From assembly GCF_056712565.1 (NCBI RefSeq), contig NZ_CM160072.1: a stretch of DNA of 64,000 bases, one strand, 5' to 3'. Positions 1 to 49,907 of the stretch are shown piece by piece. Positions within the stretch are counted from its first letter, which is position 1, and every line of letters begins with the position of its first letter. The translations under genes and the position numbers were made by a program. Below the pieces are notes generated by a model that had not been told where the DNA came from, searched no databases, and saw only the letters and a program-made list of their open reading frames with translations.

Positions 1-264
1 GGAGTAATCACCACCATGATTGCGTCACTGATTATTGGACCGTTACTGACACCGCTAAATACATTACAGGTATTATTAGCGGGTTTGTTAATTGGTATTA
101 GTGGTTTTTGCGGCGATGTAGTGATGTCAGCCACCAAACGAGATGTTGGTGTTAAAGATAGCGGAAAACTATTACCAGGACATGGCGGACTCCTTGACAG
201 GATTGACTCATTAATTTTCACCGCTCCGGTATTTTTTTATTTTATTCGCTACTGCTGTTACTGA
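1..264 (+). CDS. ynbB: CDP-diglyceride synthase (CdsA) family membrane protein, 3' part; 5' end lies outside the window
   Basis: Reading frame open from position 1 to stop at 264 (track ORF 16..264); C-terminal [12 protein letters not shown] motif typical of CdsA-family cytidylyltransferases; sits directly upstream of ynbC as in E. coli. Confidence 0.7.
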
Positions 265-279
265 AGGAAAACAGAGAAA

Positions 280-3343
<3,064 letters not shown>

Positions 3344-45769: not shown

Positions 45770-46520
45770 TAATCAAACTTCTGGACAACCAAAGCCAGAG
45801 CCAGAAGAATGTGTGAAAGAGCAAAAAATAACAGATCATTTTAAAATAATGATTGATAAGGCTCGTAAGGCACAAAAGTTGGTTTTGATAAAAAGAGCAG
45901 ATGATCTTTTGAGATGGGGAGCACAGGAGGAATATGATTTCAGTAAGATCTTTGGTGTTAAAGGAAATAAGGAGGTTAATATAAGAAAATATGGACATAA
46001 TACAGGTAGGCGCATGAATGCTAGATTTCTTATGATGGATGGTGTGAGAAGATTAATGATTATAGCTAATGATTTAACAATGAGCAGTTTTATAAATTAT
46101 ACAGGTTGTAATGAATTTGCAGCATTCGTCAGCCCAAGTAAGGATATGCCCTATATAATTAACATAGGCGCAAAATTTGAGTATAGAGATGGCAAAAAAA
46201 ATCCAGTAACGGGAAAGGATTCTCATGTTGCTACTTTATGTCATGAAATGTCTCATATTCAGTGGTATTATGGGGATAATAAAAAAGGTGGTATGTGGTC
46301 ACAGGATTATACAACTACTGATAAATATTCAACGTGCAAAGAGGATGAAGTTTCATATGACGAACATATCCGTATTGCAACTAAACTGATCTCTAAACAA
46401 AAAGATCAAATATTTGAGAATGCATATAACATAGAAAGATATTTTGAAATAAGATTAATTGAAAGTGAGATAGACTCGATTGATGATGAAATATTAAGCA
46501 ATTCAGTTAAGAAAAAATAG
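45759..46520 (+). CDS. putative T6SS cargo toxin with HExxH zinc-metallopeptidase-like motif (family unassigned)
   Basis: AT-rich ORF in track 45723..46520; probable ATG at about 45759 (AGGA RBS) overlaps the vgrG stop; contains TLCHEMSHIQWYYGD (HExxH); no signal peptide; directly downstream of and co-oriented with vgrG. Confidence 0.55.
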   Translation: MDDNNQTSGQPKPEPEECVKEQKITDHFKIMIDKARKAQKLVLIKRADDLLRWGAQEEYDFSKIFGVKGNKEVNIRKYGHNTGRRMNARFLMMDGVRRLMIIANDLTMSSFINYTGCNEFAAFVSPSKDMPYIINIGAKFEYRDGKKNPVTGKDSHVATLCHEMSHIQWYYGDNKKGGMWSQDYTTTDKYSTCKEDEVSYDEHIRIATKLISKQKDQIFENAYNIERYFEIRLIESEIDSIDDEILSNSVKKK

Positions 46521-46572
46521 CGGAATTAGAAAAAGCACTTCTCCATTAACTAATAAGTCGAGAAATATATTA

Positions 46573-47292
46573 ATGCTGCAAGCTATAAAAAAAATCATAA
46601 TAATGACAATCGTAAATATTATATTTTTCTATTCCTTTCAATCGACTGCGGATGAAATGGTTTTAATAAAAAAATACGGGTTTGGGCTTGAGAGAGATAT
46701 CAAAGGAAGGCCATTAATTTATCCTATCGAAAATTATGATGAGTGTAAGAAAAAATGCAATCATATGAATTATATAGCGGATGTCAATGCTCAATTAGCT
46801 ATGAGTAAAAAAAATAACAGGATTTTTGCTAACATAACCTTTACTAACAATAGCTCTACCACGTATTTTTTTTCTAAATATTATCTACCTATGAAAGTAA
46901 AAGATGGAAAAGGAGATGAATATGATGCGATATGCAAAAAACCATTCAGAATCAACTCTGGGAATATCACGTTGGACTACTTAGGTGGTTCATGTCCTTT
47001 TGAAATTAATACGAATCCTGAACGGTGGAATACTATTAAACCAGGTCGTAGTTTTTTGTTGAGTATAACCTTAAATGATATGTATGCCTTTATACCAGGA
47101 GATAATTATTATTTTATAAAATCATCTGGCTATAAATTTGTTAATGACAAGTGGTTTACACTCAAATCAATCAATAATATTTTTCTTTATTTTTTAAATT
47201 TAAAAATTAATTGTGCTGATGATTTTTTTGATATTAATAATTTTACTACATGTAATAATTTGTTATTGGATGAAAAAAACACTTTTTATTAA
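46573..47292 (+). CDS. candidate cognate immunity protein (N-terminal signal peptide or membrane anchor; family unassigned)
   Basis: 239 aa very AT-rich ORF immediately downstream of the putative toxin; hydrophobic N-terminus MLQAIKKIIIMTIVNIIFFYSFQSTA; Cys-containing, Asn/Lys/Tyr-rich; role inferred from position only. Confidence 0.4.
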   Translation: MLQAIKKIIIMTIVNIIFFYSFQSTADEMVLIKKYGFGLERDIKGRPLIYPIENYDECKKKCNHMNYIADVNAQLAMSKKNNRIFANITFTNNSSTTYFFSKYYLPMKVKDGKGDEYDAICKKPFRINSGNITLDYLGGSCPFEINTNPERWNTIKPGRSFLLSITLNDMYAFIPGDNYYFIKSSGYKFVNDKWFTLKSINNIFLYFLNLKINCADDFFDINNFTTCNNLLLDEKNTFY

Positions 47293-47469
47293 TCAGTTAT
47301 GGGCAATTGAGGATGAAAAAAATTCTATTTACGTCACCCCTGATGAAATTTCTATAAGTATAGACGGCGATAACTTAAAGTTGCCATATTAGGAATATGG
47401 GAAAGAACACGGTGCGCCGCTTTTTTGCACTAAATAATTTACATTTTATGTTCAATAATTGATACTAAC

Positions 47470-47613
47470 ATGTTGGATATTAAAGGTGAAATTATCACAA
47501 CTGATGCGATGGGTTGCCAGAAAGATATTGCAGAGAAGATACAAAAACAGGGAGGTAATTATTTATTTGCTGTAAAAGGACATAAGGAGCGGATTAATAA
47601 AGCCTTTGAGTGA
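47470..47613 (+). mobile_element. fragment of an ISAs1-family (H-repeat-type) transposase gene
   Basis: 47-codon [50 protein letters not shown]; the DAMGCQ region resembles the C-terminal part of H-repeat/ISAs1 transposases as I recall them; no inverted repeats or full-length gene. Confidence 0.4.
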
Positions 47614-47690
47614 AACTTCCGCTGAAAATTCAGGTTAACCGCGTTCCATGCAAACAATTTTCAAATATTCATCAATAAATAAGGAGTTCC

Positions 47691-48157
47691 ATGTTTATAC
47701 GACCAGTCAAACCTTCAGATGTTGAACCATTAATGGATATGCTGCTTGACAGGGATCAATTTGATCAAGATGGCCTTCATCATGTACAAAAAACACTAAC
47801 ACATTATTTCTCAGGTCAATCTGCCGATTTATGGTTTAGTGCAGAACACTTGGGACTGGCAGGGATTGCCTACTGTGCTTCTGAAATGATGACAAATGAT
47901 GTCTGAAATTTATTAATGCTCTGGATCAGTCCTTCCCATCAGCGCCAGGGAGTGAGACATCTGCTGATTAACGAAATAGAAAAGAGCTCACAATTAAACA
48001 GGCAAGACTACTATTAGTAGAGACCGCCAGCCATATCGATTTTAGTGCCGCCCGCGCATTTTATACAAAACAGGGCTTTATCAATGAGGCGATAATACGC
48101 AATTACTATGATGTTGGTGAGGATAAATTAATCTTCACTAAAAATATGCAATCGTGA
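47691..48157 (+). pseudogene. GNAT-family N-acetyltransferase gene disrupted by frameshift/stop
   Basis: 71-codon ORF (MFIRPVKPSDVEPLMDMLL...) followed in other frames by LLMLWISPSHQRQGVRHLLINEIEK (GNAT motif A-like) and FYTKQGFINEAIIRNYYDVGEDKLIFTKNM (GNAT C-terminus). Confidence 0.5.
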
Positions 48158-48222
48158 GATAAAATATGCTTTAACTCATATGGAAACATTGCTTAAACAA
48201 CTTGGTTGCTGCATATGATTCT

Positions 48223-48792
48223 TTAGCCCGCCGTAACTCGCTTACCACTGGTAACAAACGTGCCAGCACCTAAATGATGCAACGTATTGAGCTTATCATC
48301 ATCAAACTGCCAGCGGCCTTCGACAAATACCCGTGCGTCTGCCGCTGCTGATACCACTTCGCCAAATAGCGTATCGTATTTTTCTTGCGCGGAAGTTGCA
48401 GGTAGCAGGCGACACTCCATCCACGCCAGACATTTTTCCTCGACCAGCGGCAAACCAAGCACCGGGCCTCTCACTACCGGAATGCCGTAGCAATTAAATT
48501 TATCTTCTTCACGACCCGACACACTTCCCACCGCCCACGTCCAGTTAGTCGCCGCAACGCCCGGGATAACGATGCCAAACTTACCGTTACGTTCAATCAA
48601 CTCCCTGGTCCATGTCGATTTATCTACCACAATCGCCACGCGTGGCGGTTCAAACTCTACGGGCATCGACCAGGCTGCTGCCATAATGTTACGCCGCTGG
48701 GATTGCTCATCGAAACTGGTGATCATGACAGTTGGGCCATGATTTAACAGACGGCTGGCATGGTGTAATTCGACGGGAATGAATTGGCTCAC
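48223..48792 (-). CDS. yddH: flavin reductase-like domain protein
   Basis: 189 aa ORF; position upstream of nhoA as in E. coli. Confidence 0.8.
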   Translation of the reverse strand: MSQFIPVELHHASRLLNHGPTVMITSFDEQSQRRNIMAAAWSMPVEFEPPRVAIVVDKSTWTRELIERNGKFGIVIPGVAATNWTWAVGSVSGREEDKFNCYGIPVVRGPVLGLPLVEEKCLAWMECRLLPATSAQEKYDTLFGEVVSAAADARVFVEGRWQFDDDKLNTLHHLGAGTFVTSGKRVTAG

Positions 48793-48966
48793 GATATCGC
48801 CTCGCTATGAAGGGTGTTTTAAAAGCGTAGCTCGTAACGCAATAAGTAACGAAATTAACGGGATTGGCGATTTGCGAACGTGATGCATGTCCGCGATCGC
48901 ACAAAATAGCCAGTGCGGCGTCTATTCCAGGTTATAAGTTGAGAAAACCACTAAGGGAAACGCCTG

Positions 48967-49812
48967 ATGACGCCCATTCTGAATCATTATTTTGCCCGTA
49001 TTAACTGGTTGGGAGCTGCTGCGGCCAATATTGATACGCTGCGTGCATTGCACCTGAAACACAATTGCACCATTCCGTTTGAAAATCTCGACGTTTTGCT
49101 GCCGAGGGAAATACAGCTTGATGATCAATCGCTGGAAGATAAACTGGTGATAGCCCGTCGTGGCGGTTACTGTTTTGAGCAGAATGGCGTGTTTGAGCGG
49201 GTGTTACGCGAGCTGGGGTTTAACGTTCGCAGCTTGTTAGGTCGCGTAGTGTTATCAAATCCGCCAGCATTACCGCCGCGCACCCATCGTTTGCTGTTGG
49301 TGGAACTGGAAGGGGAAAAATGGATTGCTGATGTCGGTTTCGGTGGGCAGACGCTAACCGCGCCGATTCGTTTAATGCCGGATATCATGCAAACCACGCC
49401 ACACGGAGAGTATCGGTTGTTGCAAGAGGGTGATGATTGGGTATTGCAGTTTAATCATCATCAGCACTGGCAGTCGATGTACCGTTTTGATCTCTGCGAG
49501 CAGCAACAAAGCGATTATGTGATGGGCAATTTCTGGTCGGCGCACTGGCCGCAGTCGCATTTTCGCCATCATTTGCTGATGTGTCGCCATTTGCCGGACG
49601 GTGGCAAGCTAACGCTGACCAATTTTCATTTTACCCATTATGAAAATGGGCACGCAGTTGAGCAGCGAAATCTACCAGATGTGGCGTCGTTATATGCCGT
49701 GATGCAGGAACAGTTTGGTCTGGGCGTAGATGATGCGAAACATGGCTTTACTGTGGATGAGTTAGCGCTGGTGATGGCGGCGTTTGATACGCACCCGGAG
49801 GCGGGAAAATAA
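48967..49812 (+). CDS. nhoA: arylamine N-acetyltransferase (N-hydroxyarylamine O-acetyltransferase)
   Basis: 281 aa ORF; NAT family catalytic Cys region (RRGGYCFEQN). Confidence 0.9.
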   Translation: MTPILNHYFARINWLGAAAANIDTLRALHLKHNCTIPFENLDVLLPREIQLDDQSLEDKLVIARRGGYCFEQNGVFERVLRELGFNVRSLLGRVVLSNPPALPPRTHRLLLVELEGEKWIADVGFGGQTLTAPIRLMPDIMQTTPHGEYRLLQEGDDWVLQFNHHQHWQSMYRFDLCEQQQSDYVMGNFWSAHWPQSHFRHHLLMCRHLPDGGKLTLTNFHFTHYENGHAVEQRNLPDVASLYAVMQEQFGLGVDDAKHGFTVDELALVMAAFDTHPEAGK

Positions 49813-49825
49813 TTTATGTCAGGTT

Positions 49826-49900
49826 GCCGGATGTGGCGTAAACGCCTTATCCGGCCTACATTAGCCCGGTTGTAGACCTGATAAGCGAAGCGCATCAGGC
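49826..49900. repeat. pair of REP (repetitive extragenic palindromic) elements
   Basis: gccggatgtggcgtaaacgccttatccggcctaca and gcctgataagcgaagcgcatcaggc between convergent nhoA and yddE. Confidence 0.6.
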
Positions 49901-49907
49901 AACGGTT

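Follow-up and report, generated by a model that had tools for sequence, protein, structure and literature searches.

The association of H-rpt (H-repeat) elements with Rhs elements has been on record since the 1990s, and in Escherichia coli K-12 the RhsE slot contains, in order, yncH, rhsE, ydcD, yncI, the H-rpt gene ydcC and pptA. The genome paper of E. coli W (PMC3032704) tabulated this slot as the Rhs region b1455-b1461 and described H-rpt elements as going along with Rhs loci, their transposition never having been observed. The literature on ISEc1/H-rpt together with Rhs otherwise yielded general descriptions and nothing more specific, and the text matches to 'ISEc1' in PMC10711316 were actually to ISEc12. 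The RhsE location is recognised by its place between yncG/yncH (b1454/b1455) and pptA/yddH (b1461/b1462) and by T6SS (VgrG/Rhs) cargo accompanied by H-rpt copies.

We examined positions 47293-48222 of a 64,000-nucleotide stretch of E. coli DNA of B2 type (the whole stretch is called the window below). Synteny with K-12 showed that the slot from yncG to yddH in the window is the RhsE site, with a PAAR and a VgrG gene present and the Rhs core gene absent. To the left of the interval lie the PAAR gene, the VgrG gene, an M35-like peptidase gene and an immunity-candidate gene, and to its right yddH, nhoA, yddE and narVWYZ (Table 1). The sequence of the interval is 100% identical in DSM 30083, Nissle 1917, ATCC 25922 and many ExPEC/APEC chromosomes, and it has a single matching place in each chromosome of DSM 30083, Nissle and ATCC 25922. 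The GC content is 0.26-0.39 across the interval up to position 48200 and then reaches the core level of about 0.52 inside yddH. We are highly confident that the RhsE hot spot of the window contains a horizontally acquired PAAR-VgrG-effector-immunity module and that the interval is what decay has left of the right junction of this module; the pieces of the interval and their exact lesions were identified, as were intact counterparts at the same locus.

Table 1. Positions in the window of the features at and around the right junction of the island
Feature	Positions	Strand	Remarks
Second ISEc1 left-end remnant	42766..42925	+	intact-looking IRL CAGGGAAAGATTACG through the first ~5 transposase codons
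VgrG gene	43364-45769		
M35-like peptidase gene	45723-46520		
Immunity-candidate gene, ORF in the window	46573-47292		
Orphaned 3' end of the immunity-candidate gene	47293..47392	+	
14-codon ORF	47313-47357		MKKILFTSPLMKFL
ISEc1/H-rpt left end	47397..47462	+	degenerate terminal inverted repeat ATGGGAAAGAACACG (consensus CAGGGAAAGATCACG) plus ~50 bp
ISEc1 transposase gene, internal piece	47466..47627	+	codons ~160-213, ORF nt 477-639; contains the 47-codon ORF
47-codon ORF	47470-47613		
Deletion junction	47628..47629	.	IS-internal sequence joined straight to GNAT-upstream DNA
GNAT (RimI-like) N-acetyltransferase pseudogene	47691..48157	+	directly before yddH; W72*, A5>A4, G89R
Probable pptA 3'-end vestige	48177..48222	+	BLAST HSP with K-12 extends from yddH into pptA; 48177 = L004:13239
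yddH	48223-48792	-	flavin reductase family; first conserved core gene right of the variable slot

Two differences were observed outside the interval. The effector region differs among B2 strains with common flanks (window 45683-46560 against Nissle L001 3410-5268): the window has one 265-aa M35-like (HExxH) ORF, while Nissle and 95-3322 have a 201-aa 'peptidase M35' and a further ORF, which measures 227 aa in Nissle and 273 aa in 95-3322, and the homology between the window and Nissle picks up again at 46561. On the core side, the nhoA-yddE intergenic spacer (window 49813-49907) has two REP-like palindromes, gccggatgtggcgtaaacgccttatccggcctac and gacctgataagcgaagcgcatcaggc, and holds IS1397 in WP8-S18-ESBL-07 (WP8) and IS621 in 2014C-3075, both of which are ISs that target REP/BIME sequences.

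The content of the slot varied widely between strains. In 2014C-3075 it consists of yncH, VgrG, ISEc1, a partial Rhs, IS debris including an ISEc26 fragment, ISEc1, an Rhs core gene, an immunity gene, ISEc1, an intact GNAT gene and yddH, all three ISEc1 copies being intact. The LP5-1 slot is made up of six small AT-rich genes and an intact GNAT gene, the T6SS module being absent. WP8 is colinear with the window to 47448 and continues with the C-terminal third of the transposase, which does not overlap the piece retained in the window, two LP5-1-type genes (91-94% aa identity) and the last 227 bp of GNAT. A metagenome contig (L007) has a nearly empty slot, with yncG, a left IS remnant, 46 bp of PAAR and an ISEc1-GNAT fusion in which ISAs1/ISEc1 codons 1-134 are joined in frame to GNAT codon ~104. 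Compared with one another, these variants are different IS-anchored deletions cutting into one resident DNA, with WP8 and L007 showing distinct deletions that start from a common IS left end. The sequence-only reading had described the flank as mobile-element debris compatible with repeated insertion and deletion at this slot, before a conserved yddH, and the variants of K-12, 2014C-3075, LP5-1, WP8 and L007, together with the position of yddH, agree with that description. The AT-rich small-gene array that precedes GNAT in strains without the T6SS module (LP5-1 L002 4977-7759, WP8 L003 6281-7836) might consist of orphan immunity genes. The intact ISEc1 adjoining GNAT in 2014C-3075 has a tandem duplication of its left inverted repeat (CAGGGAAAGATCACGTAACGCTGCT twice, L008 7641-7690).

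The 47-codon ORF, which had been read from sequence as an ISAs1/H-repeat-like transposase fragment, is indeed homologous to ISAs1-type DDE transposases. It matched NCBIfam NF033564 (transpos_ISAs1) with E=6.9e-15 at model positions 133-178 of 314, the score of 55 bits being under the cutoff of 70 because just 46 of the 314 positions are left, and its match to Pfam DDE_Tnp_1 was weak (E=0.011). The internal piece that contains it showed 84% aa identity (tblastn, 51 aa) to residues 160-210 of K-12 YdcC and of the intact ISEc1 transposase, and, over its 162 bp, 89.6% DNA identity to the central part of ydcC, which is the RhsE H-repeat transposase gene of K-12; RefSeq labels the fragment 'ISAs1 family transposase, incomplete; missing N-terminus and C-terminus'. 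The size of the remnant had been under-called, the left-end piece next to the fragment and a second left end on the other side of the module having been missed. Over 64 bp, the left-end piece shares 81-83% identity with the corresponding end of intact ISEc1 from 2014C-3075 (L008) and L007, and it also aligns with the region upstream of K-12 ydcC. A complete transposase ORF (~378 aa) is absent from the window, where only codons ~160-213 are left and the frame is broken at ~47613. The terminal inverted repeats (CAGGGAAAGAT...) are represented by a degenerate left copy (47397-47411, 11/15), and, since the right end has been deleted, there is no longer a pair of flanks in which a target-site duplication could be seen.

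Two deletions were delimited in this remnant. Only 3 bp separate the left-end piece from the internal piece, which points to an internal IS deletion of ~555 bp. At the second junction, the IS sequence ends at 47627/47628 and homology to LP5-1, 2014C-3075 and GF4-3 begins at 47629, the IS 3' half, the right inverted repeat and ~47 bp of GNAT-upstream sequence being missing. The intact 1,291-bp ISEc1 of 2014C-3075 (L008) ends ...CGTAATCTTTCCCTG / ...CTTTCCCTG and is followed by TTTGTTTATATAAATGCC...TTGACTTCAGATTAACCG, with 47 bases (TTTGTTTATATAAAT...TTGAC) between the end of ISEc1 and the point equivalent to 47629. According to this comparison, the second deletion in the window took 47 flanking bp along with the IS 3' half and the right repeat. 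The left-end piece has a lower identity to ISEc1/ydcC (81-83%) than the internal piece has (~90%), and the two might come from different elements instead of from one with an internal deletion. Relative to the H-rpt/ISEc1 of K-12 (ydcC and the pseudogene yncI), the remnant has the same chromosomal slot, the same orientation, the same position as last element before the core gene and a CAGGG-type terminal repeat. However, it keeps ~230 of 1,291 bp in two pieces, with no right end and no complete ORF, and its neighbour is the GNAT pseudogene, whereas in K-12 it is pptA.

The second ISEc1 left end, which lies just ahead of the PAAR gene and has the orientation of the right-flank remnant, showed 91-92% identity to ISEc1/ydcC left ends, so that the PAAR-VgrG-effector-immunity module is bracketed by direct IS left ends; a search across the window for another ISAs1/ISEc1 or GNAT copy found none. 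It is conceivable, although we consider it doubtful, that the IS remnants are retained recombination anchors, direct ISEc1 copies allowing T6SS cassettes to be exchanged or deleted by homologous recombination. The bracketing in the window would suit this, as would the Rhs modules of 2014C-3075, bracketed by intact ISEc1 copies all in one orientation, the fact that K-12, 2014C-3075 and the window all have an ISEc1 copy or remnant as the final element ahead of the core-side gene, and the different IS-anchored deletions in several strains. However, the remnants of the window have just ~64 bp at 76-83% identity in common, not enough for RecA to recombine them efficiently at present, and recombinant junctions were not demonstrated in this analysis. 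The H-rpt/Rhs association has moreover long been described, and anchoring would explain the history of the locus but assign it no current function. An extended proposal, in which ISEc1 would supply portable homology for cassette swap or loss while, in parallel, the homopolymer tracts of the immunity-candidate gene (A8/A7 and T6/T5, with three C-termini among natural isolates) would allow slipped-strand switching of the immunity protein and not simple decay, is improbable.

The next part of the interval, in our preferred reading of it as a decayed junction, is a dead GNAT gene. The sequence-only reading had described a GNAT gene in at least three frame segments and had pointed to intact copies elsewhere as the comparison to make. 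Intact 155-aa alleles were found in LP5-1 (WP_040063150.1, L002:8052-8519) and 2014C-3075 (WP_123000022.1, L008:9063-9530), in the orthologous position next to yddH, with ~95% DNA identity to the window copy, which has 155 codons once repaired. Alignment with the LP5-1 allele showed exactly two disabling lesions: a G>A substitution at 47906 that changed TGG to TGA (47904-47906, W72*), and a frameshift caused by the contraction of an A5 run by 1 bp to A4 (47980-47983). These divide the gene into three segments in two reading frames and leave no uninterrupted ORF. Accordingly, a tblastn search with the intact 2014C-3075 protein placed residues 1-98 at 47691-47984 and residues 98-155 at 47981-48154, in the other frame. 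The copy also differs from the intact E. coli alleles by G89R and seven further missense changes. Both parts of the earlier description of the flank held, as the lesions are real against the intact alleles and profile searches match the ISAs1 and GNAT families.

When the stop was read through and the frame restored, the repaired 155-aa product scored above the Pfam gathering thresholds for Acetyltransf_7 (34.9/27), Acetyltransf_1 (28.7/20.7), Acetyltransf_10 (24.2/23.6) and FR47 (22.9/22.1), which are GNAT fold profiles, and it showed 92-97% protein identity to the intact 2014C-3075 allele. The RimI equivalog TIGR01575 gave 37.5 bits against a cutoff of 86.4, and the protein is RimI-like only. 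Its best solved relative is PDB 2r7h, a putative D-alanine N-acetyltransferase (E=8.8e-15). The acetyl-CoA motif of the GNAT family is Q-x-x-G-x-G/A. The intact alleles read Q84-R-Q-G-V-G89 in this loop, while the window copy has lost the last glycine (G89R, GGA>AGA, 47955) and no longer has the motif A loop Q/R-x-x-G-x-G/A. On the branch of the window, nonsynonymous codon changes outnumber synonymous ones by 9 to 3, while the corresponding figures for the comparison of the two intact alleles with each other are 4 and 8 (Fisher p=0.10), a contrast suggestive of relaxed constraint on GNAT.

Full-length homologs with 69-73% identity exist in Salmonella (P0004), Enterobacter (P0008), Phytobacter (P0014) and others, and these Enterobacteriaceae homologs are not syntenic with the window copy. 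The Salmonella homolog lies in an unrelated integrase-bearing island with DUF3987, AlpA and CbtA/CbeA genes, so an ancient GNAT-yddH synteny was rejected, the adjacency not being ancestral to Enterobacteriaceae. A conserved GNAT cassette was likewise rejected, as the small genes upstream of the LP5-1 GNAT and those of the Salmonella GNAT show no similarity. The Salmonella enterica island (GCA_018535225.1, L005 749-10468), whose GNAT is 72% identical, also encodes four small secreted-looking proteins, YagK/YfjJ and RadC; the GNAT family of the window copy is carried on mobile islands.

We considered whether GNAT could still be expressed, either by TGA read-through combined with programmed frameshifting or in the form of a working N-terminal peptide of 71 aa, and judged this very unlikely. 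Nothing is broken in the 62-bp leader, the start codon or the first 71 codons, and B2 strains conserve the sequence; RefSeq records the 71-codon N-terminal segment (47691-47906) as the hypothetical protein WP_000470661.1, not marked as a pseudogene. However, the non-coding debris alongside is equally identical, so that the conservation reflects clonal relatedness, and in other lineages two thirds of GNAT are deleted or the gene has an independent frameshift. The motif A glycine is gone too, with nonsynonymous changes in excess on this branch, and the N-terminal 71 aa of a GNAT protein lack the acetyl-CoA-binding core. No slippery site or stimulator structure was detected, and a Rfam scan of 46400-49000 at E<=1 gave no match. 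Promoter-like sites occurred at the chance rate (6 against 5.7 +/- 2.4) and terminator-like sites were absent, so we assign no regulatory role, not even to the TTGAC box deleted upstream of GNAT. On these comparisons, we infer that probably no part of the interval has a present function.

The left end of the interval belongs to the preceding gene. An intact allele of the immunity-candidate gene reads this stretch as ...INQLWAIEDEKNSIYVTPDEISISIDGDNLKLPY*, with its stop codon TAG at 47390-47392. Alleles with A8-CAC-T6 tracts, namely P0057 (273 aa, 833 member sequences) and FDAARGOS_536 (822-bp CDS), both end ...DEKKHFFINQLWAIEDEKNSIYVTPDEISISIDGDNLKLPY*, and the TAG of this 273-aa allele falls 4 bp ahead of the IS left end. 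With A7-T6 tracts, found in two Nissle and two ATCC 25922 assemblies, the frame ends ...RMKKILFTSPLMKFL / ...NTFLLISYGQLRMKKILFTSPLMKFL and the products have 251-261 aa. The A7-T5 allele of the window stops at 47292 and leaves MKKILFTSPLMKFL as an orphan frame; this exact allele is the rarest, being present in only 31 of 629 genomes, DSM 30083 included. The tail tract allele agreed between independent assemblies of one strain. Long-read assemblies can mis-call homopolymer lengths in this gene, and an A-tract near the start codon was A7 in one Nissle assembly and A8 in another, so that some tract calls are unreliable. The gene (46573-47392) is rich in A/T homopolymers (A8, T8, T7, A7, T5), and its ORF takes forms of 239, 251/261 or 273 aa, or is split, across strains. 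The protein has a signal-peptide-like N-terminus and matches no Pfam or NCBIfam family.

The 14-codon ORF does exist, as the sequence-only reading stated, but its interpretation as what might remain of a separate gene that the island displaced was not sustained and is extremely unlikely to be right. The ORF starts with ATG, has a purine-rich GAGG ahead of it and is situated between two genes; its bases are nevertheless a different frame of the 3' end of the immunity-candidate gene, forming the in-frame C-terminus in the A7/T6 allele (251-261 aa) and being read in a third frame in the 273-aa A8/T6 allele, and no independent homolog that would indicate a separate gene turned up.

A survey of 5,426 complete E. 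coli genomes with the 583-bp GNAT region as query detected GNAT-derived DNA in 660 genomes and the full-length region in 432, of which 415 were at least 99% identical to the window and hence have the same lesions. The annotation 'GNAT family N-acetyltransferase' was present in 17 of the best 40 matches, or 16 without the truncated CDS of GF4-3, in which GNAT has been inactivated independently by its own 1-bp deletion at CDS nt 295. In the band of 90-95% identity (226 genomes), every sampled match except the full-length LP5-1 keeps just the 3' 227 bp of GNAT. The proposal that errors of sequencing or assembly produced the GNAT stop and frameshift and the short transposase ORF out of intact genes, to which error-prone homopolymer tracts and the disagreement of the two Nissle assemblies at one A-tract in the neighbouring gene lend some colour, is essentially refuted by the recurrence of the GNAT region at >=99% identity in 415 independent complete genomes from a wide range of laboratories and platforms (the majority 100% identical and of equal length), by W72* being a substitution and no indel, and by the size of the IS remnant, which is over 1 kb short of the 1,291-bp element.

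PptA (b1461) is a 4-oxalocrotonate tautomerase homolog whose gene, at >=80% coverage, was found in 4,080 of the 5,426 genomes, at the same position against the yddH 3' end. The window has no pptA ORF there, only weak (~60%) similarity in a stub of ~46 bp. When the end of pptA and the GNAT-yddH spacer were aligned globally in register, the score was 7, compared with -9.9 +/- 3.6 for shuffled sequences (0 of 5000 reached it, z ~4.7), while unanchored local alignment with pptA was not significant (108 of 1000 shuffles); support for the 46-bp stub thus comes from the synteny-anchored test only. The GNAT segment has probably replaced most of pptA.

The order and direction of events can be proposed as follows. 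A GNAT-bearing segment would earlier have taken the place of most of pptA beside yddH, this direction, pptA before GNAT, resting on the 46-bp stub of ~60% identity. A T6SS/Rhs cargo module with a complete ISEc1 (H-repeat) on its right would then have arrived just upstream of the intact GNAT, and the arrangement of 2014C-3075 (Rhs, immunity gene, intact ISEc1, intact GNAT, yddH) likely represents this precursor state. In the B2 lineage of the window, two deletions would have shrunk the IS, one removing positions ~66-620 and the other extending from ~position 784 through the right end and a further 47 bp, with loss of the DNA upstream of GNAT position -62. GNAT, with selection gone, would have gained W72*, the 1-bp homopolymer deletion, G89R and the other missense changes, and the last island gene would have shed its C-terminal 34 codons by two 1-bp contractions (A8>A7 and T6>T5).

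The junction debris is ordinary, and nothing in it departs from known Rhs/H-rpt hot spots and pseudogene decay: the scar lies at a long-known RhsE rearrangement hot spot, and its IS fragment was already recorded as partial in RefSeq. The finding has little importance beyond annotation and reveals no new kind of element or mechanism. For annotation, it means that the 'hypothetical protein' WP_000470661.1 is the first part of a dead GNAT gene (71 aa, the 'first third'), a mis-annotation spread over hundreds of B2 genomes, including Nissle 1917, ATCC 25922, CFT073 and the type strain DSM 30083, and that the last gene of the island is annotated in at least four lengths because of its homopolymer alleles. 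For the biology of the RhsE site, the precise junctions indicate that ISEc1/H-rpt-associated deletions trim the right edge of its T6SS island to lineage-specific depths, and these junctions are usable as a lineage marker and for reconstructing the history of the hot spot.
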